NCBI RefSeq assembly: GCF_015706575.1
Contig: NW_024037060.1
Coordinates: 2,728,515-2,792,514, forward strand
DNA length: 64,000 nucleotides
DNA from: Patiria miniata
Taxonomy: Eukaryota
Direction of reading: 5' to 3'
Shown here: one piece after another, positions 22,178-45,398 of the stretch
Position numbering within the stretch: position 1 is the stretch's first letter
How the letters are laid out: every line of letters starts with the position of its first letter
Position numbers and translations under genes: made by a program
The notes under the pieces: generated by a model
Seen by the model: the letters and a program-made list of their open reading frames with translations, nothing else
Databases searched by the model: none
Told to the model about the DNA's origin: nothing

Positions 22178-25100
22178 GCTTCACTTGCTCAGAAGGCCAT
22201 GGGTAAAGGCGTCCCAGTCGACAAGTGCTCCAAACTGCCCTTCCACGCTCTCTACCGACCCTTTAATGTACGCGCTCGCCCGCTCGATGGCTTGTGAGAC
22301 CTTCCCAGCGACAGACGTGGGCAAGTCTAGCTGGGCAGACACGTTATGTAGGTGAAGGCGGGCGAGTAGAGTCGCCACCAGTCGGACGGCCAGATCAAAG
22401 ATGTCACCGACGTCTACCGTAGCTCCTTCTCGCGACATGACTACACAATAAACAACGAATTTATATTATAATTATGATGATATAAATATCATAAAAATAA
22501 ATGATTAAGCATGGTTAATTTTTAAGGGATTTTTAAAATTAAAAACGAGCATGCCTTTTGTATCCCTTATACTTATAGAAACGTATTGATGTGTCATAAT
22601 GGGGTATCTCATATTTCAAAAAATAATAAAAAAATATAATATTAACGTTTATTAATAATAACGGTGTGGACTTCTTTTGGTATAATATAAAATGATCTGA
22701 ACAGTGTTGGTCTATATTGATGATTATGTATTAATATATACATACGTTTCACCAACTCCCTCAAAAAAGGCCCAATAATCATTATCAAAATAACTTGGAC
22801 GACTATCGAAATTGAAGACAAGGATTCACTTGGGCCGTCTTACCTGATTTGAGTTTTTCTTTGAGACGTTGTTTGCACTCCAAGATGTTGATACCTAGAA
22901 TCTCCTCCAGTTCAGACTGAAACTCCCAATGTCCGTCCTGAAAAGCGGAAAACCCAATAAGCCCTTAGATTTCAGCCAACTAAGCTGTTTAGATTATAAT
23001 TAGCCATTTTTGACAGAAAGAAAGCACACATTCATAATGGAGCCTGACAGGTATTATAACACATACCACGTTTTGTAACTCAATAAGACGCAGCGTGTCT
23101 TTGGTGACAGTTTCTGGATCCTTTACAAGAGAAGCCATGGCGTCAGTCATCAGCTCATCATCGGAGCTCCCAACAGACACTTGAGGTGGACGTCGGGGAG
23201 GGGCGGTGCCTCCTAGGGTTGGTGGGGTAGGAGGTGGGGCAAGGCTTACTCCAGATGGTAGGGGAGGGGGAGGGGCGGCGCCTCCTGGTGGGGGCGGGGG
23301 AGGGGGAGGGGCGGCGCCTCCTGGCGGGGGAGGGGGAGGAGCGGAGCTGGCCATAGTTTCTAAAAGTGGAATGGGGGAAGCGCGCATACGTGCTGAGAAA
23401 GCTTCCTCATCAAATGATGGGGGATGGGGAGATAATTCCGGAGCGTCTCGACTAAGACTTTTCGGTTGCTTGCTCTTTTTCTTTTTAAATAAGCCCCCCA
23501 CTGCATCCTTTGCTGTCTTCATTATGCCTGGGCCGCTGGACTTCGGTCGTCTTTCAGGAGCGTAAGATGCTCCAGGCAATTCTTTTTCCTTTCTTGCAGC
23601 TTTGGCCCTTTTCTGAATGACAGGATTTTCTGAACCCTGAAGTACCTTGACTGGTTCAAAGGCCCTCTCTTCATAGCGTTGTGGCTCTGGCATGGTGAGT
23701 TCAAGCACTGGTTCCGGCATAACGACCTCCCTTTCGATCATCCTATCCGGTTCCAAGACAACTTCTCTTTCTTGTACAGCAAGTTCTCTAATATCCTCAC
23801 TTAGTTCGTGACGTTGTGGCATGGCTACAGTGTCAACAAACTGGGGAGAAAGACTCCTCTGCGGCTCTGGCATGAGAAGATCTCTTTCGATCATCAAATC
23901 CGGCTCAAAGACAACTTCTTCTCTAGCACTGGTGTAAAGCATCGGCCGTGGGACATATATTTCCTGTTCCATCACATCTTCCTCCAACACTTTCGCAGTC
24001 ATGATCTCCTGCGGCTCCTGTGGTTCCGCAACCCAGCTGCGGGATACAGTTACAAGGGTGTCTGTCTTAAGTGGTTCCATTTTGGGTCTTCCCATCGGTT
24101 CCTGTCCATAGCTGCATGTGTCTCGGTCTTCCACCCATGTCACTTCATCCCTTGTCAACTCATGAGAGACTGTCATCCATCTATCCATCTCCCCTGTTGA
24201 CTCTACATTGTCTTCCTGACTGACTACCACTAACTCCTCTCCTAACTCATCAATGTCTTCAAGATATACTTCCACTGACTCGTCTAATTCAGCCGGGATA
24301 TCGCGTAGGCTGGGTTTGTGCTCAGGCTGTACCGGCTGCGCATTGATCCTTGCCATCTCCATTTGACATCTGATTAGTACAAAGAAATGCAGTTTATATA
24401 ATTAGACATTTATTTATGTATTTATTTATTCCATTTCTTTGCCCAGGGTATGCCCAAACTGTTAGAAACTGGTTTCCATTAGGGCCCTGCATACTTACCA
24501 AATTATTAAAAAATGTTAAGTAAAGTTGACCTCGTAAGGAAAATACATTGGTGAAACATACGACGAACATTAATATTTTTATACAAGTACATGTATCTCA
24601 AAAATATTAAAGAAAAGCTATATACATTGTACATATTTTAAACATGCAACTATTTGGCATAAATTACTGATCACGCGGGACGGGCGAAAACCCCACAAAA
24701 ACCTTTAGGGGGAAAAAAGGAGAAATTCTTAATCCAGCTCCAAATTAATGCCATGGCAACCAAGTATATAGTCCGTAGATCAACGCATTTTGAACTAAAT
24801 TTCACTCACTTATGGTGTGAAATAAACTCAGATATGAAAATATAACATACTTAACCAACGAAGAACACCCTTCCCAAACAAGCTGGTAAAGGGTCGACGT
24901 TAGGTTCAAATAGGCACTGGTAAGGAAACGCTTAGTATAGATCTTTATCATGCTGCCACCATTTCAGTCTTGTTCCCTGTATCCAATAAAAATACTTTTT
25001 TTTGCGTACAAAAAGGAACCAGACTATTTTTACCTTCCAGCCTCGCTTTGGTTACGTTGATTTGAATGGGAAAAATCAAAACGGACGCAACATGATAATG

Positions 25101-28100
25101 GTCTATTATGTCACTTTGTCACGTACTATTAGTTGGCATTGTATACCGTTTTGCTGTGGGGTTGCTAAATTTGATGATTGTAGCAAAAGGGTGCCGACGC
25201 TATTTCCAAAGCGCTTTAAATTATGCTGTTTCTTCTAACGATACAGACCACGTTGTGCCCATACCTATTGAGACATAAAGATGATTTATAGGAAGGGAAG
25301 AAGGTATAGATACGTACGTTTCAGCCCAATCCACAGCTTGCTGCAAAGCATCTAGGTTATCAAGCTTCGAGGTATCTGCACAATTAAACCAAAAAAATGG
25401 ATTTAGTTTGAGACCACTCAGACCCAACAAGACACTTTTGGGGTACACTAGATGCCAATAAAACCCAGGCAGCATGTTTATAGGCCCTATACGGCCACCG
25501 TAACGATGCCAATGACATCATTTGAGTTCAAAGCGAGTCGTACTCATTGTGTCAATCATGAAGAACTGAGAGTATACTTGGTTGTGAAGAAATTCAGTAT
25601 AAAACGGATTCGGTAAAACGTTTTACTCTCTTATTTTATTATTTGCAAAGAGTGACAATTTGCTTTAATCGATGAAAAATTCCATCACGCCCCAGACGTT
25701 TCTGAGTATATTTTATTCAAACTAATAGGTCGAGTTTTCACTCGAGTTTCCACTGTAGGCCTATTGACTTTTTTCCAGAGGATTCAATTCCAAAATACAG
25801 GGTTTTTTCACTGTAAATCGTGTAGTTCCTTGTTTCACTGTTTTTTTTTTTTTTTTTAAATAAGAGGTTATTGTGATTTGAAACAAAAATCAGAATTCAT
25901 ATCGGCATTGATACCTTTGTGATTCTTCTCTTAATAGAGCAAACGTAAAGCTATAGTTTACTGTTCACCTTCAATTATTAACAATAAGATTAAGTTTACG
26001 GTTGCAAACTTAAGGTAAATCTTACCTTAAGGTAAGTTAACTTACCGTAAACTTACGGTAAATCTTACCTTCAATAACTGTTGTTTCTTGAACCTCGGCG
26101 AGTTCGGGCATAGCTTTCTTGGTCTCCAAGAACGCACCGTTGACGAGCTGAAACGCCTGGTCCATGTTGCGTTTGACTCGGGCACAAAACTTTGAAAATG
26201 AGTAGGCCACCTGAAAAAGGTAAATGATAGAAAAATAATGACTTCGTCACTTCTCTTCTCCGAAAACGCCCAAAATATTGCAGTAAATGGGTTCTTATTT
26301 TGTTTCTAGCTAGGTGTATAGATGTTACAGGATGCATGGTGGTATACTTAGCGGATGGAAACGTGGTTTGAAATTGCTTTGTCCGTGCTTAATAGTTTTG
26401 CCCCCGCAAAAATAACGTAAGTATTGAATTTATAGTGTTTTGAATACATGATTGATTGAAGTTTAACCAAGTTTGATGTTATTATAGATTTAAGGTATTG
26501 GAATTTGGAATCTCTTTCTTAAAATGTTCATGTCCACCATGCAAACTTACAGGTTTCAGTCATTCTTAAAATTTCAATAAATATTTTTTTGCACATTATG
26601 AAACATGGTAGAAATTTTACCAAATACATTGCAGAGTGTAGTGAAAGTTTAAAAAAAAAAAAAGTTTTCCCAACACCCAATGGAAATTTTAAATGCAATT
26701 CTAATGATTTAAAACTGTAAACAACTTTGTACCGTTAGGGTAATAGGCTGGGCGTAGGAGAGAGTCTCTTTGGCCAACCCGTACGCTTCCTCGAAGTACT
26801 TCTCTGCTGACTTGAAGGAGAATGAATCGGCGGCCACTTTGGCGGTTTTCAGAAGGCTGTGAACTCGCTTCAAAGGTGACAACTGGAGAGGAAAACGTTC
26901 ACCGTTCAGAAGATTCAACATAGTTTAGTCTGTCTGCTTTCAATTTCTCAAGAGAGAATCTAGGTTTTTCCGACTCCAACCTTGTTCAGCAAAGTAATGT
27001 TCCAAGAGCTGGGTGGTCGGGAACTTTCTCAAGTCGCTTAATGAAAGAAAAACAAATAATAAAAAACATTCTGGTTGGACTAGACATGCAGAGCCCATGC
27101 TTGTTAGGTTAAGTCTCAAACAATTAAACCATGATTAATTAACCTTCAGTCTCTGACGACGGGCAGAGCATACTGCCCGAAACGTTGGGTTTTCCCCGGT
27201 TCTTTTCAGAACCTCACAAACTCACCAAAGAGATATGTCACATGGTGCTACCTTTAATTGTTATATTTTTGCTATCGTCACCATGCAGTTATATAATTAC
27301 CAATGAGTTAGATAGACCTACAGAATTTGTTTGTAAGGTGTTTGTCCGACCTCACCTGTTCCGTTTCCGCCATTAGTTCCTCCCACTTGAGCGAGAGGAG
27401 ATGGTCGACATCTTCAGCATCGAGAAGTTTCTCTAGACTCAGAACTGTGGCAGGTCTCTGACCTTCTGTAAGCTGTTTCTGCTCAACCTGCAGGGAGCGG
27501 AAACGCAGGGAACGCAGAACGATACATTCAATCTTTCTTTTATCAAGAAGAAGTTTTTGTTACGGTCAGCGGAACAGAGTTCCAGCTGCAACATGACAAG
27601 TTAAAAAAATAATAACCACAGACAATTGAGTTTTACCTCATCTCTTTCCTCCACAGCGATGAAGCTCGTGAAGGGAGTGACAATCGAGTACTGGATGCTC
27701 AGCTCCACGATGCGCGTTTTCAGCTCGTTCTTCTGCGATTCGTGCTCTGTGCGATCAGCGTGGAGGGCGCCCTCTTCCCAATTCCTGATGACGGCGCGCG
27801 CGGCCAACTGGTGAAGAATCTGTGATTGCAACGGGATGGATTGCTTCATGTATTGCGTCTTAAACAATCCGTGGTCAACGATGACTTCTTGTGCAAGTAC
27901 TTCCTTTATCAAATCGTATAAGCTTGATTTGTCTCATTAAATAGGAACATGGTTCTCGGGGAACACAGTTCGTTTTATCACAGTTTCTTGCTATACATTG
28001 TTTCAGAGATCGAGAGGCGCCGAAATAAAGTTAGGCCCTATCTTTAAATAATTAATGACTTTACGTAAACATTTTGTAAGAAATCGGGTTTTAACTGTCT

Positions 28101-31100
28101 CCGTCTTTCACACATACTTTTATAGTTAACAATAACGGAAATTTCCAGTGTATTTCAGCTTTAATTTCAATCTAAAAAAATCGGTGCATTATTTATGTTG
28201 GATACATTAATTAACAAGCTTTCATTTGGACAGAGGTTGAAAGTCAGCTACTGACAGCAAAAATATATCGGAAGTAAAATTAGAGTTAATATTTTGGATT
28301 CTGAAGTACCTTTCCCTCCATTTTTGGATGATCTGTTGCCGAAAGCTCCATCTCAACCTTCCTGCCGTTGATCTCGGCAGTCAGCGTTGCCTGCATAAAC
28401 CACAACATAATCAACAATCTTTCATAATAACAATTTCAAGCAAATCCTATCATGGGCATTAGTCAAATAGTGTTTGATTTATGACGTAACTTAAAGTCAA
28501 TGGTTCAAACATAATAGCGTTACTTCTGGGTGCTGGTTCCGTGTTGTGCCTCATGATGCGCGCGACTAATTTAACGCTAACCTTCCTTATTATTGTTGAT
28601 CTTTAGCTGATATCGTTGAAGACTTTAATTAACGTGCACACGTCAGCGACTTGAACCTTAATAAACAATGCTTGTTTCGACAGTGGATTAGTCAAAACAA
28701 AAATCCGCAATTTCAAGCAAATCCTATCATGGGCATTAGTCAATGTGTTAATAACAGGGAGTGGAGTACACGTTGTTGGTTAACGGCATGTTGTCGACCA
28801 TTCATTATATGCGTTCACGATAGTTGCAATGGCCCGTCCAATATCGACACCTTTTGTCATTTTCGCCGTTGAGGGGGTAACTTACTTTCTGGCATTCTTG
28901 GACGAGTCCGTAGACCAGCAGCCTGTTGTGTCTAAACAAGGAGGTGATTTCTGCAGGAGCCTGGAGGGCAGGTGGGCGTGGCTCAGCATCATCTTGGTGC
29001 CACGTGACACGCAGGGATGCGACAGCCGGCTGGGATGCGCGAGAGACTTGCAATTGGATCTGTATAGAATCGAGAATAGACCGATCCATTAATAGGCTCC
29101 GCCCCATGGCGTTTCGACCAATCAAAGCCGTGATTAATGCCCAACATGCGTGAACGCGCATGTGAGTAGGCGGGGTCTCTAACCGATCAGTCTTAGCCTG
29201 GCATGTTCCTCACCAAATACTGCGGCCTTCAGGTGTTCATATAGAACGGGTGATACTCAGACTAGTGTTCATATTGACAGACCTTGCTTTGCAGATAATA
29301 TATTTTCCTGCTTCTGGTTAATTCCACGTACATACAATTAACAAAAGAACGATTATTGGAAACCGAATTCAATTTCTGTTAAAGATGGTTCTTTAAACTT
29401 AAATTATTAACCTGAGCTCTTTAGATCTTTTAATTCATGCATAAATACATCCTCTTCTCAAATATGAAGCGCACCTTTTGCTCCCAAGTGGATTTGGCCT
29501 TGGTGTCAAAGAACTCAAAAGCACCACCTCCTTGTCTGGCGGCTGCTGCCAGTAAATGCCGATTGGCTGTTTTGCTGTAAAAAATGGAAAATGTAGATAC
29601 ACAACCACTGATAGGTTAGTGAAAAAAAGATTTTGAAATTTGCCATCTCCCCTCTAGGTTTCTAAGACCGAGTCAGATGCATGATGAGTTGCAGTTATTA
29701 GCATTGTTATGACGATAATGATGATGATGATGCTGATAATACATAGTAACATTTTATTGGCTAAGACACGTTCACGTGACGTGTTTCAGAAGTTAATGTA
29801 TGATCACTTAATCCGATGCATCATCGGATTCAAATCGTTCAAAACCACATCCCAGCAGATACTACAATAATTTTACCTGACACCAAAAGTGAACACCCGG
29901 GAGTGTGCCCGGTGGCGTCCCACCGCCCTCAACGTTGCCTGTTCGTTGCTAAGGTGACCGTCTGTTATCAGAAACAGGTTTCTGAGGGCGCTCGTCGGCT
30001 TCAGGAGATGGTTGGACTGTAGAGGGCGCCAGAAGTCCGTGCAGCCCTGCTCGGCGGTAGCGCCCTTGATGAACTCCCTGGCCGCTTTCAGGTTGGCTTG
30101 TGTCTTGGGCTGGCTGGCAGGGAAAAGTTCGTCAAACTCTACAAAAAAAACAAGGATGAATTGTAGAAAATTAATTAAAATGTGACGAACTTGGTTATCT
30201 TTGTCAAATTTTGCCGAGCGTCAAACACAGTTGGCAAGTGGTAACATTATAAGGCTTATTCTATATAAATGAGAGCCCCTAACTGGTTACAAAGAGTGAG
30301 TTTAACAGACGGGACACTTGACCACACTGCTGCCTAATCAGGCCAGTAGCTCTTGCGAAAACGATACACCTGCACGCAGTCAATATTCGTGATCAATATG
30401 TGATTAAACCTTTTCGCACCTGTGCCAAAGAAGATGACATTAAAGGTGCACTGCGCGGGTAGATTCTGCAGAATGAGCAGCAGGAGTTTCTTGGCTTCCT
30501 CCAAGATCTCCCCTTTCATCGAGTTGGAAGAGTCCAGAACAAGAACCATGTCTGGATTGGTCACTGAGCCCACATCGATATCGGGGTAGAAGACAAGCAT
30601 GGCGGCCTGTATTGAAGAAATGAGATCTTTTGAATAACACTTTTAATTGCATGGGGACTTAGTGATGATTCTACCATTTTGGTGCAGAGGTGTAGGCATA
30701 CGGTTTCCTTGCTATCTATCTGTAATTTCAAATACCTCCCAGGCCTACATGAGATTGGGGCCAGTCCGTGCCTCGTGCCTATGTGGTTTTTTCCTGGAAT
30801 ATTTTCCTTGATTTCCTCCTGCCTCTAAAAATGATTTTTTTTTTGTCTTCAGACTTTCCGACAATATTGGTAAACCACTTTCCAGAAATACCCTGTTTAC
30901 ATCACGAGAAAGAACTGAATGAAATACAATATTCGTTACGTTGTTATGAAGGTCGCAGATTCAAACCCTGCTCCAGGCAATATCTTTGTACAAACTCACT
31001 ATTATAAACAAGAGACATAATAACATTTCAGACGTAAAATTTACCGAAGGAAAACCAAGGCCAACCGGCAATATATTGCAATAGCGTGGACCGGTATTTC

Positions 31101-34100
31101 TCTAAATCTGATTGGCTATTTTATGTTACCTGCTCTTTAGTTCCCGGATGTTCTTCCAACCACATCCGGGGCTTGTGCATCTCATCTAGACCAATCAAAA
31201 GCTGGAACCCATCATCCAGCTTGGAGTCCTTTCCCAATTTAATAGAGGCCTTTTTGTTGTCTCGCTGCAAAACAAACAAAATGATTCTGATTTCAAAAAA
31301 GAAAAGAACAAAATAATAATGCCATGCAAGGTACGTGATACCCGATTGAGGCTTTTGAAATAGTGAACTTATAACAGTTTGTCTAGTTTAACTATAGAAC
31401 CAATTCCTTGTTCCAATACGTTTATATGCATGGAAGCTTAAAATTTGTAACAAGGAGTTACTCAAGCCCATCGCAGCTGAGAAAAGTTTGTTATTATTTA
31501 CTTTCTTTCTTAAAACTTTGTTAAACTTACTTTGACAAGAATGGAGTGTGTGGGGGATTCGATGCATGTGATCTCGGATGCCATGGTAACCGCAACCTGA
31601 ACTGATTCTTCTCTGAGAAGGAAATAAAGGAAAAGACGAGCAACAATAGATTGCAGCAACTGGAGACTTTTGACATGCTAGGTTGCAGCAAGCACACCTG
31701 TCCTTTCAATCAATTACGTCTTCGAGCTAATGTTTAAAATGATGCAGATCGACAATATATAAAGACCACGCAAGCACCTAGCTATAGTTATGAGGAGTTC
31801 CTTTGTAAATGGGTATTTGGTATTCAGTGAGGTGGTCTGGAAAAATGAAATCAATCGGGAAAACTTGTTATCTACATTTCAAATACATAAAATGTTCTTT
31901 AATTACTTGTATATTGTTTCTAGGTCGACGTCGACGGCGTCCGCTCCTCCGGGGGCGCCCTTCGCCATCACCTCCTGTCGTTTCCATGGCGCCACGCTGC
32001 CTAGGAGTTTGAAGGCTAATTTGTCGCCCTCGACGGCCAGCTCAGTCACGTAGGTGACTTTGATCAGGACGTCGGAATGAGCTGGCAGATTGCCAACGCT
32101 GACGGAAAACACATTCTAAGGGCAAAAGACAAAGCGTTCCAGTAACGCATTGTGTAGCCTGTTGGAACCAACTTTGCACAAATCCAGGTGCAAGAAAAAT
32201 ATACAGTTGTATACACAGTACGATATTAAACAAAGGAAACCTTAAGATAAAGTTAAAAAGCAGTGGACAGGTCTGCGGTTTACGTCTTACCGGTGCCTCT
32301 TCATCCATGAGGTATGCTCCATGCCCCTCCTCCACCGCCTTACGGTACTCCTGGTGCGCCGCCTCTTTCTCCTTCACAACACCAACTACATGTTTGTTAT
32401 TGATAAACGCCTCGAAGCCACATACCGCGGCTGCTTCGTCCACAGGGAAGACGTATTTGGCCTCCATGGGTTCACTGCTGTTATTCCGGTAGGCCTGTAT
32501 GACGACAACCTGTGAGAAATCCGGTGTGAAATGTAAAAAAAAGCATTATTCCTAACATTTTTTGGTGTACTGTAGAAAATCCAGCAAGTTTGGAGAAAAA
32601 CCCGAGGTGAATGTGTATATTGGAACTTCCCACAAATTCAAAAGTGAATTAGAAGCCAATTTGACATCACGCGTCACGATGCTTTCGCAGCGATATTTAC
32701 CAAGCCGAAATGTGTTTATATTTCTTTAAAGGAATTGCGAAAACCTACCGGCACATGGCAAATACGCGAGGTAAAGTACAGCGAAAGTCAAGTACAAGCA
32801 CCACGTCTTGGGTATTTTGTGCGTGTACTATATATTTGTCTCTAAATTCTCCCAAATTCAGACCCAAAATTCTCATGCAAATGTTAAAAGAACAGACAAA
32901 CCTTTACAAAAACCAAGTATGTTAAATAAAATATACCAATTCACAATATATCATACGATGATTTAGATATTGGTTTATTTAAATAACAGCGCCCTTTACC
33001 TGTGCTACAAGATCTAGTATTTGTGCCCTGATGTGCACGGCTTGTAACGTCACAGTGTCTGATGTCTCATTGCTGCCGACCAAACCAGCTTCAATGCTGG
33101 CGATCGGGTCCTTAGCACATTCGATGTCACTCAAATCTGTCAATTAAGGGAGAAAAAACAGGTTTTTTATATCAACAGTGAAATAAAAACCGCACTTTGT
33201 CCCCTGAAAAAAATCATGATTTCCAGTAAAACTTCAAACTGAAACTGACCCCGAAAAACAAACAATATTTATGTATTGATGCCATTTTTAATCTTCTAAA
33301 ATAAAGTCCCGTTCCCTTTATACTTTATAACTGTGTACACCGACCGAACACGGCACTGTCCTGAAAACGTACACTTTCAAGGAATCAAGTTTTCGTATAG
33401 AGTCAGATTTGACATATTACCGTCCGTAGTGTTATTATAGTGGCAGAATTATGATTTCTTTCTTTTTAAGTTTCTGAGCAGACGAAGATCGATCTTATAC
33501 CAATATTACAAACAGAAAGACAATCAAACAGTAGGCCTAAATAATGTGGTTAAATACTTTTAAGTTCTGCATTAACGTGTCTATCAATTTAATTGCAACA
33601 GCCAAAAGTGTCGCCGTTTACGTTCAGCAACTCATGTCATTTTTTTTAAACAAAAAGTCGGGCAAAATGCAAAAATGTCACTCGTTAACACCCGACCCCT
33701 TGCAAAATCAGAAAGCCAACTGTATTTCATCGTTTTACCGATATCTGAAGGACGGGCGCTGCTTTCTTCTTGGGCCTGCTCAGGAAAGATCAGCTGCTCC
33801 ATAACTCCCTCCTCAACCTGCGGCGTCTCGCATAGCTGCATGTCGATCTCCTCGTCCCCCGGCAAGACGAACTCCACCAGGTACCGGATGCACTGCTGGT
33901 TCGCCTCGTACACAACAAACTCGTCATCCTAATTTTAAAGGGGGGAGGGGCGGGGGTGAGTAATCTGCAAGTCAATCCTGCATATATTCATTCAGTGGTA
34001 CAAACGTGTCTTATCTGTTCTCTCTCTCTCTGAAAACAAATTAGCGGAACACATCTGTTGTTCAATAAGAATTGGAAAACAGAAATTATGAAGTTGCTCA

Positions 34101-37100
34101 AAGTTCACCGTGAGTTTTCTATTTCAGTTTGTTCATGTTACTTGTTTAATGACTTTTTCTCCACTGTTTGTTTTTAATGTAAATAGTAACAAATATCTTC
34201 ATGTTGAAGTTAACGAGTAGCTCCAAGCCAGCAAAAAGCGGAAAATAAATGAAAGTTGATTCATCCATACCAAAAAATCCCTAATTCATGGTTATCCAGA
34301 TTTTTGTTCTGCTCACTCTGGGGTGCGAATATGGAGAACAGGAATTCCAGAGCCTTCTTAAATATTAAAAATGTTCAAGTCTTCTACCACTGCAACCAGG
34401 AGTGATTCCTATTTGGGATGACATTTAGGTTGAATCCACATCTGATCCCTTTGATTTCCCTTGCTGGGGTTTCCTCCAAGCAGTTAAATTAAATGCTTCG
34501 ACGTCGTCTCAACAGGCTTCCGAGCGACAGTGCCTTGCACTTTTGACGAACCCTTGGCCTCAGTATGATGTAGTAAGTTAAGGAAAGAAAGCACACACAA
34601 ATTCGACACGAACGCTGTACCTTGAACTCGGAGTCTCGTGTGCCGGTCCTGCTGACACCGTGGGTGCTATGGTAACCCTTAGGTGCCTCATTCAGGCTCA
34701 GATCAAACCAATACAGGTCTTTGATGTTGCCAAGGGCAACCTTGTTGACAACCATTAGTCTGGTGCCGGTCTGCTGGCTGGGTGACGAGTACTGCTGTGC
34801 AGTGCTGGGGATAAGCAAAACAAAATTAAAGTTAAAACCCTTCCTATAATAAAACGTAACATATGAGAAAATAAGTTCTTAATTGCAAGGTTACACGATA
34901 CAGAAATAGTCTCTCCGCATGATACATAAATAACTTTTATACCAATTATTGCTGTATCACGTGACACCCACCTGACTCGGTCGCCAAAATAGATTCCACT
35001 TCCCAGCATTCCTGCATCTCTCCGGGAACCCCCGAACACCTCGACGACAATCTTCGGGAGTAGAACACCCCTTACACGAGAGAAAACAAAACACAATTTC
35101 GTATCAACCTAACCTATAGAACGCTCGTGTTTTTCTCAGATTCCAAAGAAAAAAGATTGCATACCGCATGAAAAATATCTGGGCCTGATAACAACAGACA
35201 AAGCAGCTAGGGTAAAGGGGCCGGTCATTTAAGGACTCTTTCAATAATGGTTTTAAATTGTTGCTTTTACTTGAACACCCCTAAAGTGGAGCGAAACTGC
35301 ATTGTAGATTTTGGCTCTATTATTTTCTTATTCCCATTCGCAGTCGATTTCTTTACGAAGGTGAGTTACATCCACTTCCTTCGGAAGACGGATAGTGCCA
35401 CTTGCCGCCACAAAATTAGTGGCGGCCGCCACATAATAAGTGGCGGCCGCTGTACAAAAAATATTTTCACACGTACAAAAAATATATATATTCAGACTTA
35501 TTGAGTGGCACTATCCGTCTTCCGTAACTTCCGCCTGGAGATCGCACATTATTTGTTTCACTCAACTCACAGCAGTAGCCTAAACGCTGATATAAATTAT
35601 AAAACAGGTTTTGTCGTGTTCAGGTAATAGGCAATTGTTTGATAACACTCGTGCTAAAAGCTTCACACTTTTATTACTACGAGGGATCATCTTCACGTAC
35701 AGCGCATAAGTGTAATGCACTTAGAGATAACGGTATTTCGTTTCCTTTGTGGATACAACCTGTCAGAACAAAGTGCATCGCGTGAGAGACTTGAATCTGA
35801 AGGAGCTACTTATAAGTAGCAGAGGTTTCAAAGAAATATTGGTCATTTTTATGGCCAACTGCGGGAAAGTGTGTATGAAAGCTGAACATAGTATCCTCTT
35901 TTATGGGACGAATTCTGTAATGTTACTGACAGTATTAAATTGTGCAGCCTTACAGGTTTAATCATTTCTATCATGATTCGATATGTAATGTAATATTTGT
36001 TGTGCAATCCTTGGCAATCCTTTGTGTCCCATCCAACCTTATTTTCAATTATCGTTTCGCCATTTTGAAGGGTATTTTGGTGCCTTTTTGGTTTTATGCT
36101 AATGTGAATTACCATATTCATGAGCAAAAGTGTGACGTCTTTTCAGGCAGAAACCTCAAGATTACAGCTATTTTAGCATCAAGAGGTGCCAGAATTTTGG
36201 ATGCTTTGCTGATTAACACCATTTCATTACATTTTAGATTCCCGCCCTCTTCTGATTGCTTAAAGCAGTTTCAACGGCTGCTAGGCTACAATAATATTAA
36301 AGAATACAGAAAAGCTAAAAAAAAAATATACAAACAGCTGTTGCACTGTGTATTTTGAATGTGGGGTAGCTGTCGTGGCGCTGTGCAAAGTTTGTTTTCT
36401 CACCTAGAGAGAATCCCGAGGAAGTTAGCCGGCCTGGAAGCATGGAAGAGAAGCCGATCATTACCAGTGCCATGGGCATACACTGCTTCCTCGACCCCTC
36501 GGCTTGCTGCAAAAATGCGCTTAATTTCCAGAGGCTCGTCACTTGAAAAACAAGGAGTGCAAAATTAAAACACAAACGAAACAAAGTCACAAAAGACATA
36601 CATGGAACAAACAAAGGCCGTTTACCAAAGAGCATCCAGAGCTCCGACTACGTCAGCAGAGGGCGTGCACAGAGCGCCCTCACCGTGGGCAGGTTTTATT
36701 AAAATTCAGTGACAATGTATGTATCACATGTCTTCATAGCCGATTTTCGACCAGATCTGAACAGATTTTTTTGTAAAAAAAAAAATCTAGCAGAAAATCG
36801 AGCAGAATGGAAATTTTAGCAAATTTCTAGGAGAGTGTAAAATCGGTGATCAACTTGCAGAAAAACATAGCCGATTTGTTTTGAACAAGCTTCAATCACT
36901 TCAAACAAACCCTGGACACCACATTACACTAGGGGGCGCTGATATGGATGTATGTCAATAACATACTCACACTAACATCAAAATGGCGCTTTTTAAAAAC
37001 GCTCGTACTTTGTTTCTCCACTTTTCAGTGCTATTGAATACATTTTGGTTGTTGAGATGTTAGAAACATACCTCAAAATCCGAATTTATTTTTCTCATCA

Positions 37101-37104
37101 CAAA

Positions 37105-37153
<49 letters not shown>

Positions 37154-40100
37154 GGGTGGGTGAGGCGGGGGTTGATTTAGTAGCACACCCCTGGTCAAAA
37201 AGTGGGGTATACCCCCCACTCCATCCTGCCCCCGGATTTACACCCCTGTCAATATACAACAGCACTGCCCTCTATTACTCCGCCTTATCTTAACGCATAA
37301 AGTCTATACTTTTTAACTAATACCTCGACACGGTGGCTTTCACCAGTTTCTCCACCTTAACGAACTCCGGGTGATCAGGTGCCAGACAGTCCAGGTAGCA
37401 TTGCAATGCACGGTATCTGGACTGACTGGTGCTGCGTTGGGACCAGTCTGTCGCTTCACTCACCGCCACAATATCGTGAATAAGCTAGATACATAATACA
37501 AAATTGCAAATAATAACCACATAATCTCATAGGTGTCAATTCGTTGGTAGTTGTGAAATTTTATACATTTTTTTTTTCACCTAAGAGATTTCAGACATTT
37601 TTGGGGTTCAACGATGCTTTGAGATTAGTTGTTACAATTATTAGGTATTGCGTTTTGCTATAATGCATCGCAATGGTAGAATTATACTGATTCGTCTTGT
37701 AATAAAACACCGACTCATTTTGTGTAATAACCATTTGTCTAAAAAATGATTAGATTAAATCATTACCAGTTTTCATTTTGTGCTTCTCTGCTAAAAAATG
37801 TTTCAAATATCTACCTAACCTTATTCTTTTCTCCTCTGTGTTGTCAATTTTGGATTAGTTATTCGACTTTTTTCTCTTTTTTTTTGCTTTGTGTTTTGTG
37901 TTTTTTTTCAAAATGGCCTAATAGTAGGTTAGGCTCGTGGCTATACTTTAAAAAATAATTTATTAAAAATAAATTATGATATTACCAAATCGACTATTAA
38001 AACAAACATTTTGAAAAGCAAGGTTAATATAAATTATTACACATATTTTTGATCTGCTTCGTATTTGTCCCACCTGGCACAATTCCTGCTTGCCGGCTAG
38101 AGTGCGCTTGTTGTTCACGGGTGCCACGTGGTGTAATTTATGCGGTATCAGTCGGTAGAACTCGTCGTTCAGCTTATCGAGATCCGGTCCGTAGCCGTCG
38201 CAATCAGCGTCTAACATCTTCCTGATCTGGAGTAATATACCCTCCGCCTTTTCCACCTGAAAAGAACCCCCAAAAATATTTAAAATGAAAATAAAATCCT
38301 CATAGGAATTTGAAAATATTATCTAAGAAATACTGCAACAGCATGTAGTTAAAGTGAATCGGCGTACATTGATCATTTTAGTCAGGATTCGACTTTAACT
38401 AGCCACCCAGGTTTATTACAGATTCTGAACTAGCCGGGGCATTTTTGCTAGCCCGCATGTTTTCCTTTTATAGAGTGTCTCATAAACAACAATGTGCATA
38501 CATCTAAAACGTGTTTATGCTGAGGCAACTTTGTCAGTGTTTTTAATAAACAGATAATAGTTTAACCCTGAACAGTTAATATAATTAGAAACTAGTTCAT
38601 GCAGGTTTGCTTTCTGAATTGAATTATTTATTTCTGCTTGTCCTTTCATCTTTGCCGTAGCTCAATAATCTTTGACTCGCCAGCCGGGCTAGTACCTAGT
38701 AAGGAACAGCTTGGCTAGCCCGCCGCTGTTTTGACCGCGGCATTAGCGGGCTACCGCTAAAGTCGAACCCTGTAAAATTTAGCACGTTTTGAGGGTTGTG
38801 CAAAAAATTCAATATCGAAAACTATATTTAGAGTTTCACTATTGCAGCTGTGTCTATTATCCCTAGGTTGACTGCATTTCCTGAATGTCTGGCTATTTCC
38901 GGTTAACGCTGTATCTATTGAAACTGCCCGACACTCATGCATGCCGACACTGTCTCTATCCAGGTAGCGGTATGCATGGTTTTAATTGGGACATCAGAAT
39001 GTCTACGAGTGTGCGAGGCTTGAACAAAAACTTGATAACAAAACTGCGAGATGAACATATTTACGCCACGTGAAATATTTAATAACCCGCAAGTAGCAAG
39101 GAAATTCTGTGCCGCCTATACGTCTCTCGTACCTGCAACATTTCCAACTGTTCCTATAGTTTTTTACACTCAGACAACAGTATACTCACTGAAGATTACA
39201 TTTTGTGTTGCATGTGCACTGTTACAAGAAGTCTATTCCTGCAAACTCAGGTATATGTTGAAGATTAGCGGATATTTTTTTACAAGAAACTATCAAGAGT
39301 TTTGAGTTTCCATCAGGAGAATATTTGGGTTATTAATGCACAGCAATTTTCACTGGCACTCTCAATGAACGTTAAAGTTATGGGCATCGGGTAATACGAA
39401 ACAAATTCACGACATAATAAATTTCTTTTCAGTTTGTCTGCATTTTCTTCTAAGACATGCCTGAAAGCACAAAGCAGTTGCCTGTACACTGCTTCATGTG
39501 ACATGGCCCTATATTATAAGACCTACTTTTCCAATGCCTATTTTCCGGTAGGGAACTGATAAGATTTCTCGGAGTTCGCCATTCGCTTCCCGCCAGAGAT
39601 ACTCAACAAGCCTCGTCACTTCGTCTGAGATAGCTGGCCCGTCTGTTAGTCCAGTTTCCATCGCTTGCTGAAAGTTTAAAAAAAAAGAGGACATGACCTG
39701 AATCTACATTAGTCTCTTGTATGGCAGTCAAAAAAATCCGTTGGCAAAAAAAAAAGGTTCTAGATTGAAGTTCTTTTCGCTAAAAACCTTCACCTTACTT
39801 TCAGACCTTTTGTAGGTGAAAATGGAAATAAGAGGTTCAAATTGATTACAGGTCAAATCCAAACAACTAAATAGCAGGGATTATAATTGAAGCCGGGATT
39901 ATGGATCACAGGCCTCTTTTTCTGTTTTATTTTACAAAACATCAAGTGTTCCCCCCCTTTTTAGAGGCCACCACTGCGTATAAAAACGTTTGTATAGTCG
40001 GTAACGAATTTTGCAGTTACTCCACAATTCAGATTTTAGTAGTCGTCCGTTCACTATTCCGCGTATGTTTTTGTGTGCTTCTTTTGTCCTTTTTGCGACA

Positions 40101-41590
40101 ATGGCTCCATATTTTGCCTGAGATAATACAGCCTTGACGAAGCCGAAGAAAAGTCAATGCCCGAACGAAATCCTATTGCGAGTAGCTATATAGGTCACGC
40201 GCGTGATAACTTCCCCTGTGAGACATCCAGGCTAGGTACAAGAATTACCTTCCGGTAGACTGGGGAGCCTATCCATCGGGACAGGAACTTCTTGGTCTTG
40301 TGAAAGTCGGAGAAACTGGAGTAGATCTTGGCGTAGATACGAAGGGCTTCTTCGCAAGACGATGCGTAGTGACATTCCTTACTCCCATAGGTTTCATCCT
40401 GACGGAAAGACGTGTTGAACGCAGTGTTTTTTTGTTAACGTTGTTGTTGTTGTTTTTAAACTTTTTGGGAAGGTGGTCAATTTAGTTCAACAAATGCATA
40501 AAGACTTTTGGCGAAAATTATTAAACTTTTCCTTCAAATTCATTTGATAGTATGTATTTCCAATACATTAGACAAAAGTTGCATCTCAGGAGGCAAAAAA
40601 TTACTTCCAATGCATTAATTACTAAATATTAATTACTTAAATTTACTTCAATGAACAGCTTGTTAATATATAATCAGAAGAGTTATTACAATAAAAACTG
40701 CCGACAAAATTGAATTTATACATTGATTATAAAGATAAAAATTACTTACAATTTTGCTGATGATTTGACAAAGGAGGATTTGACGAAGAAATTATCATAA
40801 ATGGGAACTACTTTGATTTGGGAAACTTTTACCCGACTGTACTTTTCCGCATGAGATATTATGAACACCCACACAAATCTCATACAATAATAAAACGTCA
40901 GTAAGCAACACGGGTTTAGTGTTTATTGCTTTAACCTTGCAGTCGTTCAAGGAAGTTTAACAACATGAGAGGCCTTGACATGTATCATGAGATATGACAA
41001 GTGAGGCACGTGCAAATGGGAAAGGACGGACAGTGCGCATGTTAAACAAATAGTGGTTTAAATCTCCTACCTGCATTTCCAACAAGCGACCGGTGTGTGT
41101 AAACACGCGGCACGGGTATTCGGTCGGTGTTTGCCCGTCCGACTCGGTTTCGTTGTCGGTAGAGACAACGTGGAGCTCCAGAAGACGAAACTCCGCATCC
41201 TCACCCGGCTGGGGTTGGGGCGGGTCCTAGAAAGCCACAAGAGGGGAAGGGGAAACAAAGTGACCATCGTCCACCTTTTTTTCTCTTCTGGAAGGTTACC
41301 AAGAGTTCCAGGAATGTGTATTTGAATTTTGTGTAAAATAATTGCTTAAAATTCTGATTTTTTCTTTAGAAAAAGCTTGGTTTTTCGAAGACAGCTTTTT
41401 TTTTCACAAAAAAGCCCACAATAGGTACCAAAATGGAAAAAAAAAAATCAAATCCGATTAGTTTAAACCTCACGGGATGCAACTCTATATGTATCTATCA
41501 TAACGTTTACCTGAAAGAGGGCGCTTTTAGCTACATCATAATGGTCTTCTGGGAAACTGGGTGCAGCTGGATCGCCCCACTTCCAAACTC
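22178..41590 (-). CDS. PARP4: Vault poly(ADP-ribose) polymerase PARP4 orthologue, with at least 25 exons. Approximate coding exons on the minus strand: 41513..41590; 41090..41230; 40260..40400; 39509..39694; 38040..38260 (PARP regulatory domain, …KAEGILLQIRKML…DEFYRLIPHK); 37325..37490; 36400..36545 (LLFHASRPANFLGILS); 34920..35060 (GSGIYFGD); 34560..34810 (VALGNIKDLYWFDLSLNEAPKGYHSTHGVSRTG); 33700..33930 (DDEFVVYEANQQCIRYLVEFVLPGDEEI); 33000..33140; 32270..32510 (VIT: AKYVFPVDEAAAVCGFEAFINNKHVVGVVKEKEAAHQEYRKAVEEGHGAYLMDEEAP); 31903..32112 (FSVSVGNLPAHSDVLIKVTYVTEL…APWKRQ); 31530..31615; 31140..31270; 30334..30600 (VWA: MLVFYPDIDV…VLVLDSSNSMKGE…FNVIFFGTG); 29870..30130; 29470..29580; 28850..29100; 28310..28395; 27601..27912 (LHQLAARAVIRNWEEGALH…FTSFIAVEERDE); 27365..27490; 26709..26890; 26095..26213; 22989..24362 (giant proline-rich exon); 22800..22940 (DGHWEFQSELEEILGIN); 22178..22438 (C-terminus + stop).
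   Basis: Compared with the human PARP4 protein sequence as I recall it, the exon translations give long collinear matches. Examples: human AKYIFPLDDKAAVCGFEAFINGKHIVGEIKEKEEAQQEYLEAVTQGHGAYLMSQDAP; FTVSVGNLPPKAKVLIKITYITELS; DDEFVVYKTNQVKMKYIIKFSMPGDQI; MLVFQPDLDV…; IHKLAARALIRDYEDGILH…FTSFVAVEKRDE; TANRHVL…FEYFNAKSK; DGFWKLTPELGLIL. The domain order PARP-regulatory, PARP-catalytic, VIT, VWA, long C-terminal tail is specific to PARP4. Catalytic H (LLFHASR), Y (GIYFGD) and E (DDEFVVYE) are all present. Exon borders are approximate, and the 5' coding exons upstream of 41590 were not resolved. Confidence 0.9.
25987..26070. repeat. Palindromic cluster of GGTAAG/CGTAAG motifs (ttaaggtaaatcttaccttaaggtaagttaacttaccgtaaacttacggtaaatcttacc), directly downstream of the donor of the PARP4 exon 26095..26213.
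   Basis: Seen in sequence. On the minus (transcribed) strand it gives 4-5 consecutive consensus 5' splice sites within about 70 nt. Confidence 0.8.
37096..37162. repeat. (GT)14 microsatellite followed by a G24-type homopolymer tract, in a PARP4 intron.
   Basis: gtgtgtgtgtgtgtgtgtgtgtgtgtgggggggggggggggggggtgggtgagg. Confidence 0.95.
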
Positions 41591-44422
41591 TAAAATCACA
41601 ATTAATTAAATCACATTAGCTCAGATCAAAAAAACTGATCCCTTTGCGAAATGTTTAAACCAGCGCAACGATTACACGTCATACGAACTCGCCCAATAGA
41701 TCAATGTTCCAATTGGAATCAAAAGCTAAAAGTATACAATAGACAATGAAGAAAACCTTTATACCGTAAACCGAACAACCAGTTATAGGCTATATCAACT
41801 CAATCCCTGGCCTCACCTAAATGACAAATTTCATTTAGTCTCGACTCCACTCATTTAGACCATTCTTCTCCATGTTTAGACTATAACTACAAGTCCGACA
41901 ACCACCTCTGCATTCAAGCCAACTTACTCAACTCTACCAAACTCTACTCACTTGAACTTGACGTACTCAACGTGTTCGAAAAGTAAAACTCACCGAGTAG
42001 TTGATTCACCCATGGTGTTCGTGTTATGCACACGGGATTTATGATAATCGTGCACTCGTAGACTTTACTGAAAGGTCAATCAGCACACATCCTATACTCC
42101 AGTCTGCTATTCACTGCATGCATCGTGCTGTTTTACATCAAAAGGAAATATGTTTGTCAATGGTATTTCCTCATACAGTTAAGGTCAGGTGGAACCTGAG
42201 TACGCCTACAGTATTTGATGCGCAACCATTCACTGTCTGCTATAAGCATTTCGAGGTGGTGTTGTATTAGGCTACCAGGTAATTCTTACAGGACCAACTC
42301 CAACGTGTAGACATAACGATAAAGTACTAGGTCATGTACCTGTACTTCAGATTTGGCCTTTGAGATCCGTGGAGCGGAAAGTATGCATATTCATAGCATA
42401 CCCAGGCGCACTGACAATGCGTCAACCAAGTACCAGCAAAAGGAAAACCTCAGAAATGAATCAATCGTATCTTGGCTCGAAATTCGGTGACGACCAGACT
42501 ATGACTAGACCTTGTTTCCGAGGGAAGTGCGTTCACGGGAAAACCTCCAAGGCTATAGGCAAAACACGTCCCCTTTACATGTGTACAGGCACACAAAATA
42601 AGCCAAGGTTAAATTCAATAATTAGATTACCATAACACTTCGAGCTTTTCATACTAGGCTATCTTATTAGTTTCTTGCTCTGACTTTAACCTTGTGACAG
42701 AAATGTAGCCTGTACCTTAAGTCTCGGAATATATACATTATATATCTTTAATTTGCAATATCTGGCCGTTTGGCAAGTATAGTTTTAGCTTCCCACTATA
42801 TGGATGCATATGAAGCACGTACAACTATTATGACTCGACATGTATGGTTGTGAATCACGGGGCCAACCTTTTTTATTGTAAAAAATACTTGAGGCGTATA
42901 TCTTTTATGCCCGTTACAGTTGGGTGACACTGGAACCCAGATTTGTGGCTTTTGTCGGAGAAGAGGTATGGTCTATGCCAACTTTTTGTGTAACTACAAG
43001 TCTACTCAATTGTTTCCATTTTCAGTGCAGTGAATCTGATTGACTCAATCGGACATTGTCCAATAACAATATCTGAAAATCTTCTATCAAGATTACTTAA
43101 TTCTTTTCAGGGCAAATATGCATTGAATAAAATGGTTAGTCAGTGTAAAGATCAATGAACTTTAGACTCACGTGGGCATTTGTGAGCCTGCTCCCCTTAA
43201 TTACTTGTATCCAAGCAGCCCCCAACCACCATGACTCGCTCTCTTTTTTTCTTCTGCAGCAATTACTGCTCATTTTCATCAGATAAGAATGAGAGCATCT
43301 CACTTATTTTCTTCCAACAAAGTTAAACATTTGCCTCCTTTGAAATCGTTGTTCATCTGTGCACTGTAACAGTTCTTGCATTGCCCCTGCCCCAACATTA
43401 CGCGGCATTTTGTCTCGTTGTTTTAGAAGCTGTTATCGTCGTGATGCATCCGCAAGAACCTGTCTTTTGTTGAGTGGTGGACAAACAACAGGAGATGAAA
43501 TCTATGATGATTTTTTATTGGTGTTATCACAAACCGTCAGACATCTAGGACTCTGCACGTCCGGTTTACTTATTGAAGATACAAATCAACTTTGTCGAGT
43601 CGGTACATCGGTCCTTTTCAATTGAAATTCAGTCACGATTCCCGATGAATTTAGAGTTATATCCCAACTTTGTCTCGAGTCAATAATTATGGCTCCTCAG
43701 GTCAACATTTCTCTCCTTTTTTTGTATCAAACGGCTATGAGTGTGTTCCTTTTCTTCGCGAATTCCATCTGAGATTATTTCCTATAAAATATGATGAGTA
43801 AACGGAGGCATGTTTAGATTGTAATACCTAATGAGTTTATTCAGCACGTTTAGACGCGAATGTCATGAGATATTATTATGTGCCACAATTACTGCTTTTG
43901 TTAAGCCAAAAAAAAACTTTTGTGAAAGGTGTTAAAACGAGAAGTGAAAAACATTTGCCAAAGAAGAGTACACTGTTGCAATTAGTCCTCAGGAGAGCAA
44001 TTTCGAAATCCATCATGATCAATCGCGTCAATTGGAGCACATATGGGATCCCTTTGTCAACATTATTATCTGATGCTCGGTTACATTCCAAATCAATAAC
44101 TATATGTTGACATTTCTATATGAAAGGCTCGTGACGTCCGCAAATATGACGAAGCAGGGTCTCCACATTCGGCGCGTGCTGTGAGCGAGCATTCTTCCAA
44201 ATCAAGCTTCAACCGGTAGGTCTTTGATGAGCGGGGAACAAACAAACTGGAGGAACCGGCTGTCATGGCAACGACATGAAGCGGGAGTGATGTAACATTT
44301 CCGATTGTACACACTAAAGCCGACTCGCCTTTTCGTATTGACCGTAGCCTAAAGTCTGTCACCAATATATCACTTGCTCGTAATGAATGTCGCCGTATGT
44401 CACGTCAACATTGACATTTCAG

Positions 44423-44659
44423 TCAAAACTGCTTGCCGGGAATGTTGTAAATGAGGTACAGCTTCAATTGGCTATTACCGACTACAATTTCGAACTGAGA
44501 CCAATTTTCATTGGCCAGGAAAGCACATAATGTTTGCTTAGTACGGGACATAATATCATGCGTAACTACATTCAGGTTGCCGGCCAATTTGCATGTTTCT
44601 GCCGAGCAGTTCATAACACTTTGTCTTGGTGTCAAAACCTTGGTGATGCGCAAAGACAT
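44423..44659 (-). CDS. PARP4: Candidate first coding exon of PARP4 (BRCT-like N-terminus). The ORF starts MSLRITKVLTPRQSVMNCSAETCKLAGNLNVVTHDIMSRTKQ…; the exon presumably ends at an unidentified donor before the in-frame stop.
   Basis: There is weak similarity to the human PARP4 N-terminus (…KVKYLPQQQKKKLQTDIKENGGKFSFSLNPQCTHIILDN…), a TH.I motif, the expected position 5' of the 41513..41590 exon, and an ATG preceded by a CRE-like TGACGTCA promoter element. These are speculative; at least one intervening exon (the region corresponding to human …LSQYQLNSIQKNHVHIANPDF) was not found. Confidence 0.3.
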   Translation of the reverse strand: MSLRITKVLTPRQSVMNCSAETCKLAGNLNVVTHDIMSRTKQTLCAFLANENWSQFEIVVGNSQLKLYLIYNIPGKQF

Positions 44660-44663
44660 CCGA

Positions 44664-44679
44664 GTGTGACGTCATGATT
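44664..44679. promoter_or_regulatory. CRE-like palindrome TGACGTCA at 44668..44675, in the roughly 740-bp divergent region between the putative PARP4 5' exon (minus strand) and GPCR-1 (plus strand).
   Basis: An exact 8-bp cAMP-response-element consensus. Its position suggests a bidirectional promoter. Not tested. Confidence 0.3.
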
Positions 44680-45398
44680 GTGTCATGGTGTGTGGGAATT
44701 GGTTCATTGCTATAGGAGTACCGCGTGCGTTTGCATTTTTATCCTTTTTTTTTTAAACTTCCGTGCAGCAAGCTGAATTGTTTGAACGTAATCTAGACGG
44801 TTGATAGAGTTACCTGACGAAATAGCGGACTTTGACTTATTGGATCGATATCTTAGGCAGGTAGGGACCGGCCGATTCGCGCCGAAGCTAAACCTCATCT
44901 TTGGTGCAAGTCTGCCGCGGTGCTGCAAACATCACGTGATGCGGCACTTCATTAGCTGGATGGAAACAGTCCATCAATATTGGGATATGCTTGAATTTGA
45001 TAACGAAGCTGTGGTTAGGGCGATCTTTGTGTTTTGGATGATGAGAATAAAAAAAGGCCACAAGGAAGCAACATTTGCGTGTAAAGTGGTCTTCTTCAAC
45101 CGAACTTGTTTTTGGTTGAATGGAGAAACTTGTGACTGAAGACGGATTCGAACGTGCGCCTCCGAAACACGGTAGCAGCTCCACACCAACTCGGCCAGTC
45201 GATCAAAATAAAATAGGCACATCGTCAGCCTATAATTATAGACTTCCAGAACCTCTCTATTATTTCATTCGATGTCGGATGTCCATTAAACAGGTCAAAC
45301 TGATGGATGCGTTCTTTTAAAACTCTACCTATTCTGAAAAGCCGAAAATAGACTCGTTGTTATTGGATTGAAGATATCACGGAAAACTCCTTAAGACA

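Follow-up and report, generated by a model that had tools for sequence, protein, structure and literature searches.

Introduction

Human PARP4 carries a disordered, positively selected segment of more than 100 amino acids (aa) between its ITIH-like region and its MVP-interaction domain (MVP-ID) (PMC10450202). In vaults viewed by cryo-electron microscopy (cryo-EM), the MINT domain is the only ordered part of PARP4, the remainder being mobile from long disordered regions; S1614, K1618, and R1689 of the MINT domain contact MVP (PMC12280208). Vaults are also known from sea urchins, in whose genome a VPARP homologue is present (PMC550661). Here we describe a large, polyproline-bearing exon that we assign to a PARP4 gene of Patiria miniata. 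It lies in a 64,000-nucleotide (nt) stretch of contig NW_024037060.1 (NCBI RefSeq assembly GCF_015706575.1, positions 2,728,515 to 2,792,514 of the forward strand). We refer to this whole stretch as the window, and positions are counted from its first letter.

A close counterpart of the product of this exon is the disordered segment of human PARP4 (approximately residues 1230-1570), which occupies the same position, directly before the same C-terminal helical domain. Both are long, proline-rich, predicted to be disordered, and fast-evolving (PMC10450202), but they share no sequence similarity, and the human segment has neither long proline runs nor a counterpart of the acidic 51-aa duplication described below. 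A second point of comparison is the FH1 region of formins, in which polyproline tracks of 6-8 residues are likewise split by short Gly/Ala/Ser spacers within a disordered region. FH1 is defined, however, by an adjacent FH2 domain, of which there is none here; the host protein is an ADP-ribosyltransferase, and what follows downstream is an MVP-ID domain. A third arrangement, found in the VWA5A type, Penicillium P0121, and T. brucei 9e5c_4t, consists of VIT-VWA, a proline-rich linker, and a C-terminal DGxW helical domain, and has no PARP domain. In the literature, we found no paper that discusses the polyproline arrays of the PARP4 linker.

Results

The large exon is probably joined to a PARP4 gene

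An earlier note on this DNA had read an open reading frame (ORF) of 457 aa at 22989-24362 as a terminal-region exon of a PARP4 orthologue. Counted from its first ATG, this ORF is present on the minus strand (22989..24362), and the frame around it is free of stops for 470 codons (24401..22992). At the stop probability given by the base composition of the window (p(stop) = 0.062/codon), a frame of this length is expected approximately 9e-9 times per window. The guanine-plus-cytosine (GC) content of the exon is 0.52, versus 0.36 in each flanking intron; the window overall is ~40% GC and eukaryotic in organization, with short exons between AT-rich introns. The splice sites place the exon as the third from last (Table 1). 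The ORF is coding, as had been proposed, but it is not the terminal exon, and its last 26 codons are intron. Five consecutive exons are joined in one frame by canonical GT-AG sites with matching phases, and the sole stop is at the end. The ORF is a real coding exon and, by its splice phases, probably part of the PARP4 gene. The length of the exon is 1 mod 3, and skipping it would therefore shift the frame of the end domain.

We considered whether the frame could be non-functional, arising from intron retention, from a pseudo-exon in decay, or by chance, with minisatellite expansions. Its low-complexity tandem repeats would fit this explanation, as would the finding that most of the exon is without a detectable homologue. 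Set against these are the vanishing expectation for such a frame, the GC contrast with the introns, the need for the exon to keep the end-domain frame, an equivalent exon with the same phases in Strongylocentrotus purpuratus, and an excess of synonymous over non-synonymous differences between repeat cores within the exon (both below). We regard a non-functional frame as extremely improbable.

The assignment of the gene to PARP4 holds. Exons encoding PARP_reg, PARP, VIT, and VWA domains lie upstream on the same strand, and from 41597 down to 27628 this core is colinear with PARP4 of Antedon (a crinoid) and Saccoglossus (an acorn worm) in tblastn searches. Pfam scans of the exon ORFs gave PF02877 at 22.8 bits (below the cut-off, from a single exon), PF00644 at 38.4 bits, PF08487 (VIT) at 66.3 bits, and PF13768 (VWA) at 32.8 bits. 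The H, Y, and E positions can be read in the exon translations (LLFHAS, GIYFGD, and DDEFVVY). For an 810-aa concatenate of the core, the best matches listed are all named PARP4, with 41-50% identity. None of the 120 PARP4 matches listed for this concatenate is longer than 1415 aa, versus 1724 aa for human PARP4, and full-length invertebrate PARP4 models with tails are absent from that match set; we compared genomic loci instead. The protein collection or its index seems to be short of long proteins, which biases conclusions on full-length orthologues.

Table 1. Positions of the PARP4 exons, of the blocks within the large exon, and of the corresponding exons in S. purpuratus
Feature	Position	Strand	Details
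PARP4 core exons	27628..41597	-	WGR-like, helical regulatory, ADP-ribosyltransferase, VIT, VWA, rest of ITIH-like region
14-3-3-like helical region	~26924-26745, ~26210-26070, 25375-25318	-	between ITIH-like part and linker
Exon 24	last base ~26070	-	ends ..TTVIE; donor G/gtaaga, phase 1
Exon 25	25375..25318	-	58 nt; (..D)TSKLDNLDALQQAVDWAE(T..); acceptor takes 2 bases of split codon; donor AC/gtacgt, phase 2
Large exon	24369..23067	-	1303 nt = 1 base + 434 codons; 1 mod 3; splice-site reading
Large-exon splice sites	24369..23067	-	acceptor ttctttgtactaatcag/A (aatcag/A); donor GTG/gtatgt, phase 0
Acidic block	23628..24368	-	exon aa 1-247; isoelectric point (pI) 4.25; net charge -37; rich in E, V, P, M
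Tandem 51-aa units in acidic block	23631..23921	-	two units; period 51 aa (153 nt)
Basic block	23361..23627	-	exon aa 248-336; pI 10.4; net charge +11; KRAKAARKEKE, GGLFKKKKSKQPK, LFKKKKSKQPK
Polyproline block	23184..23360	-	exon aa 337-395; 47.5% Pro; five degenerate 12-aa units APPPPxPxxGGx
Start of end domain	23067..23120	-	last 18 codons of large exon, DPETVTKDTLRLIELQNV; first helix and LxELQ motif; from exon aa ~417
Intron read-through part of ORF	22989..23066	-	26 codons, VCVIIPVRLHYECVLSFCQKWLIII then stop, past GTG/gtatgt donor
Exon 27	22937..22844	-	94 nt; DGHWEFQSELEEILGINILECKQRLKEKLKS(V); acceptor phase 0, donor phase 1
Last exon	22440..22181	-	260 nt including TGA stop at 22181-22183; ..MSREGATVDVGDIFDLAVRLVATLLARLHL...DWDAFTHGLLSK then stop
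S. purpuratus tail exons (L002)	26026-26110, 26377-26464, 27433-28579, 29159-29243, 29641-29900		five joined in one frame, single stop, canonical sites

The exon encodes a low-complexity linker that is predicted to be disordered

An acidic, a basic, and a polyproline block follow one another in the exon (Table 1). The polyproline peptide singled out in the earlier note is present verbatim; it comprises tracts of 6 and 8 prolines (APPPPPPG and APPPPPPPPG) and three degenerate units, with GGAA spacers. The underlying DNA repeats a 36-nt unit in tandem (3.6 copies at 23195-23322; 2.2 copies of 95% identity at 23261-23339), and Tandem Repeats Finder (TRF) reports a 36-nt period across 23195-23344. 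This unit may have expanded by slippage.

The acidic block contains a duplication that had also been noticed before; the tandem repeat is real, with a period of 51 aa rather than approximately 40. Its cores are EVVFEPDLMIERDLLMPEPQ (23918-23859) and EVVLEPDRMIEREVVMPEPV (23765-23706). The Smith-Waterman score of the two units is 87, versus 27.5 +/- 5.4 in shuffled sequences, and none of 2000 shuffles scored as high. The likeness is strong across 20 aa and weaker across ~38 aa, the copies are ~80% identical over their first ~63 nt, and a short motif, MPEP(Q/V), occurs three times in the repeat region. Between the 20-codon cores, the proportion of synonymous differences (pS) is 0.58 and that of non-synonymous differences (pN) is 0.17, giving a pN/pS of 0.29 in what is a small sample. 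These values suggest that the duplication is old and that the peptide has been under some constraint.

Database searches returned little for this region. No Pfam family was found in the exon blocks or the tail at E <= 10, including FH2 and WH2, and a word-indexed protein search with the large exon alone gave no homologue at E <= 1e-3. An exhaustive phmmer search of the 570-aa tail against 1.84e9 protein representatives gave 10 matches at E <= 1e-3, none of them at <= 1e-10. Most of these are polyproline low-complexity proteins; the others include an 89-aa fragment (P0128) and two end domains of the VIT/VWA type. In Penicillium P0121 and a metagenomic protein (P0125), polyproline is followed by L(I/V)ELQxF(D/E)GxW and then by a helical domain. 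We note that GIMKTAKDAVGGLFKKKK was considered as a WH2 motif and rejected, as PF02205 is not found at E <= 10 in the basic and polyproline blocks, and that a frame-shifted 'GRPRH' at 24132, considered as an actin trace, is a chance occurrence.

A single-sequence AlphaFold2 (AF2) prediction of the tail gave coil, with a predicted local distance difference test (pLDDT) score of 30-45, for residues 27-420, and helices only at 3-28 and 422-569. The acidic block was predicted as coil with a pLDDT of about 30-37. Helix 3-28 crosses from exon 25 into the large exon. On the strength of these predictions and of its composition, we think it likely that the large exon encodes an intrinsically disordered linker of ~415 residues between the folded enzyme body and the C-terminal domain.

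The end domain resembles the MVP-interaction domain of vertebrate PARP4

The polyproline had been described as a tail. Two more exons follow it and, with the final codons of the large exon, specify a domain of the MVP-interaction type. The last 18 codons of the large exon align with ..LFxLQxxDGxW.. of vertebrates and are helical in the AF2 prediction. Across the exons, the sequence reads ..TKDTLRLIELQNV/DGHWEFQSELEEILGI.. and ..VRLVATLLARLHL..DWDAFTHGLLSK, colinear with the C-terminus of vertebrate PARP4 (..LFxLQxxDGFWKLTPELG.., ..LRLVATLLVLQ.., and ..DWDSATKQLLG). Identity to vertebrate MVP-IDs is 19-27%; the A-T of VATLL and one Trp are invariant. Exon 27 repeatedly gave tblastn matches to a fish PARP4 motif, EGYWELTTELGELLNVN, and the last exon is 41% identical to fragment P0128.

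Single-sequence support for the domain is weak (BLASTP E 0.009): a hidden Markov model (HMM) of 25 vertebrate MVP-IDs scored only 13.4 bits on the end domain, versus a maximum of 6.9 in 2000 shuffles, and a phmmer search of the end domain against PDB sequences gave no match. Profile comparisons gave stronger results. An invertebrate profile built from the window, P0128, and S. purpuratus matched a vertebrate-only profile in hhalign at 96.4% probability (E 1.2e-9, 115 columns), and a four-sequence invertebrate profile that includes the window retrieved only proteins annotated as PF26156 PARP4_MVP-ID. A vertebrate-dominated profile maps onto human PARP4 residues 1571-1722. Judged by sequence, the MVP-interaction-type end domain is retained rather than replaced, which speaks against the proposal that a different partner has taken the place of MVP; binding of MVP itself is putative.

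Linkers of similar layout are found from coral to vertebrates

The same region can be followed in S. purpuratus (locus L002), where a 434-codon ORF just downstream of the annotated PARP4 contains Lys-rich stretches and PPGAAPPSPPGAAPPPSPPPGAAPPPPGAAPPPPPPPPPPP. The large exon there is 1147 nt long, also 1 mod 3, and the introns on either side have the phases seen in the window (2 before, 0 after). The penultimate exon is 85 nt versus 94 nt in the window, and the last exons are of equal length (260 nt). The urchin tail therefore shares with that of the window an exon structure and phases of the same kind, a Lys-rich block, (P)nGAA-type repeats, and the same end domain. It differs in having no long repeat-bearing acidic block upstream; its acidic patch comes after the prolines. 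The annotated urchin PARP4 (P0017, 1255 aa) ends in intron read-through, and its tail has been called as the following gene (496 aa). Among the cores compared, that of the window is closest to the divergent urchin protein (44.8% identity, versus 37-41% for the others), which suggests an echinoderm source. A tblastn search of the window tail against the S. purpuratus and Amphiura loci gave nothing significant after composition correction, and Smith-Waterman alignment of the window and urchin exons outside the proline block did not rise above shuffles. As there is no similarity to the urchin outside the prolines, orthology of the exon rests on position, phases, and composition rather than on sequence.

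More distant species carry other versions of the linker. In Branchiostoma lanceolatum (L003), a 763-codon ORF with six copies of PPPPPPPSSAR lies between a 14-3-3-like exon and the MVP-ID exons. In Porites, an acidic ORF is followed by GAFKKFAGK and then PPPPPPFPPPPPG, upstream of a PF26156 gene. The tails of B. lanceolatum and Porites evermanni thus share with the window a large low-complexity ORF between 14-3-3-like and MVP-ID exons, with acidic and basic patches; they differ in their repeat units, in FG-like and YSPTSPS-like motifs, and in being annotated as separate genes. Among the vertebrate PARP4 proteins retrieved, we took the linker as the stretch between the ITIH-like region and the DGxW motif. 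Proline runs or repeats occur in many of these linkers, including those of Sigmodon (HPPPPPLLGS repeats), Mastacembelus (up to nine prolines, three repeats), Sander (P7), P0033 (P8), Cirrhinus (APMPPPPPPPAAAPSLFGVT, three times), Camelus, and Poecilia, and Lys/Arg clusters sit at the same linker position in S. purpuratus, Porites, and fishes. We conclude that the linker conserves its composition and layout while its sequence changes, as disordered regions usually do.

These comparisons bear on two claims of the earlier note. The polyproline is not lineage-specific, since S. purpuratus, Branchiostoma, Porites, and many vertebrates have it at the corresponding position; it is ancestral or recurrent, and the note had itself named an ancestral polyproline in orthologues as a ground for refuting its reading. 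Nor is it foreign to vertebrate PARP4. That impression arose because the human linker, although proline-rich, is without long proline runs.

The related suggestion of a lineage-specific FH1-like module, binding profilin, SH3, or WW domains and giving this PARP4 either a link to actin or a new partner instead of MVP, can now be weighed. The tracts of 6 and 8 prolines with GGAA spacers resemble FH1 tracks, and to that extent the comparison stands: there are several profilin-type polyproline tracks, a likeness of composition. The exhaustive search returned mostly other polyproline proteins, the repeat-core pN/pS of ~0.3 indicates some constraint on peptide in the linker, and PARP4-like models of Amphiura and Saccostrea end in an N-terminal actin fragment. 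However, the tracks have no FH2 next to them, no WH2 or other actin-related Pfam family is present (E <= 10), and an actin-fragment HMM run over six frames found no actin fragment in the exon or elsewhere in the window. The end domain of the MVP-ID type is retained, and polyproline occurs at the same place from coral to rodents. The actin piece of Amphiura adjoins tandem actin-exon fragments and an actin-like gene, and is probably a gene-model fusion. We therefore consider such a module very unlikely.

Several further features of these loci are recorded here. The Amphiura filiformis (L001, 86871-91096) and Saccostrea (P0008) models end in PF00022 fragments of 40.5 and 33.8 bits, respectively. 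In Amphiura, the fragment (actin aa 17-42) is present in 8 tandem copies, ~170 nt apart, ahead of the actin-like exon; apart from a fusion of gene models, this array could be an odd satellite of an actin exon. The tail of a Littorina saxatilis PARP4-like protein (P0016) has a ubiquitin-like stretch (..LHLVLRLRGG; PF00240 in the precomputed list), which is either an odd addition to an invertebrate PARP4 tail or a fused gene model. Heptads like those of the RNA polymerase II C-terminal domain occur in the linker ORFs of amphioxus (L003, 36020-38308) and coral (L005, 76183-76671; KYSPTSPS), and the amphioxus ORF also has FG-like repeats. Neither type of repeat is found in the window.

Upstream exons and neighbouring genes

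Between the ITIH-like part and the linker lies a helical region, with exon 25 as its last helix, that resembles 14-3-3 proteins. It scores 27.5 bits against PF00244 (cut-off 33.2, E 2.8e-6) and covers profile positions 135-206 only, which on sequence grounds is a partial resemblance and not membership of the family. The same region is present in PARP4 models of Branchiostoma, Amphiura, S. purpuratus, Saccoglossus, and coral. Among the Pfam scans run, this piece was matched only in invertebrate sequences, and the single vertebrate sequence scanned (P0081) gave no match to PF00244.

At the other end of the gene, we found no BRCT exon upstream of 41597 (region 41600-45300, minus strand), even at E <= 20; it may lie beyond two G protein-coupled receptor (GPCR) genes or outside the window. 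The PARP4 models of S. purpuratus and Amphiura are likewise without BRCT. The GPCR genes are two intronless rhodopsin-type ORFs at 45399-46445 and 47401-48678 (PF00001, 203.7 and 106 bits), both on the plus strand, opposite to PARP4 and just upstream of its first detectable exon. A nested 7tm_1 gene is also present in the Porites PARP4 locus. Elsewhere in the window, multi-exon genes with low-density lipoprotein (LDL)-receptor class A modules occupy 2-20 kb and 57-64 kb on the minus strand (PF00057 confirmed at 17504-17788); large Cys-poor exons in these regions have no Pfam match. A trypsin-like exon is found at 53030-53338 (minus strand).

Discussion

We propose that the ORF is the third-from-last exon of PARP4 and that it encodes a disordered linker joining the folded body of the enzyme to a C-terminal domain of the MVP-interaction type, a reading that we hold with good though not full confidence. 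The sequence, the splice phases, the end-domain homology, and the comparative anatomy support this arrangement, and from it we infer disorder, tethering, and partner binding. The folded body would comprise the PARP1-like catalytic part, the ITIH-like VIT/VWA part, and the 14-3-3-like helical piece. By analogy with human PARP4, the linker would act as a flexible tether or spacer, and the C-terminal domain would be anchored to MVP inside the vault while the rest stays mobile. The polyproline may form a stiff polyproline II (PPII) segment at which proline-recognition domains could dock, and the basic cluster may serve as a nuclear localization signal (NLS) or an RNA contact.

Several observations weigh against this proposal. 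For the linker, low single-sequence pLDDT is a mere proxy for disorder. For vault anchoring, the MVP-contacting residue R1689 of human PARP4 is replaced by Gln in both the hhalign and the MAFFT alignment (the Branchiostoma end domain keeps Arg at this position), and the equivalents of S1614 and K1618 vary with the alignment, hhalign giving S and R, and MAFFT giving D and a gap. A vertebrate-dominated alignment underlies the AF2 model of the end domain. For a single PARP4 gene, there is an ATG (24362) in frame only 8 nt into the large exon, and the tail is annotated as a separate gene in S. purpuratus, Branchiostoma, and Porites.

The last two points would be expected if the large exon and the two exons after it formed a gene of their own, downstream of a shorter PARP4, with translation from ATG 24362 giving an acidic/basic/polyproline protein of ~555 aa that ends in an MVP-ID. 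The ATG stands at the very start of the large exon in both the window and S. purpuratus, and gene callers split off the tail in S. purpuratus (496 aa), B. lanceolatum (281 aa, PF26156), B. floridae x japonicum (P0131, 177 aa), and Porites. Phases match, however, at all four junctions in the window and at the homologous S. purpuratus junctions, including the one before the large exon, and 7 nt before the ATG there is a strong acceptor with a pyrimidine tract. Vertebrate PARP4 has this domain as its C-terminus, and fish PARP4 tails likewise occur mis-split as separate small 'PARP4-like' fragments or models. In the AF2 model, the predicted helix runs across the junction of exon 25 and the large exon. 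We consider a separate gene unlikely, and the splitting of the tail may be an artefact of the low-complexity exon.

If the exon is part of PARP4, as we favor, its layout could still mean more than a spacer. We entertain, as a speculation that we doubt, that the acidic/Lys-rich/polyproline layout before the MVP-ID, seen from coral to many vertebrates, may be a conserved functional module and not neutral filler. Such a module could be (i) a multivalent platform on which profilin, SH3, WW, or EVH1 proteins dock, or (ii) a charge-patterned element that controls the loading of PARP4 into vaults. Were this true, the duplicated EVV(F/L)EPDxMIER..MPEP would be a short linear motif that is specific to the lineage and subject to purifying selection.

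The large exon is best seen as a species-specific version of the known hypervariable linker of PARP4, and not as a sign of a new actin-linked PARP. Gene callers often detach the PARP4 tail at its long low-complexity exon, which hides the end domain in invertebrate annotations. A recent structural paper treated the PARP4-binding residues of MVP as vertebrate-only; the comparisons made here indicate that invertebrate PARP4 keeps an end domain of the vault-binding type in the species of the window, sea urchin, amphioxus, and coral, and that polyproline arrays are an old, recurrent, and widespread feature of the PARP4 linker.

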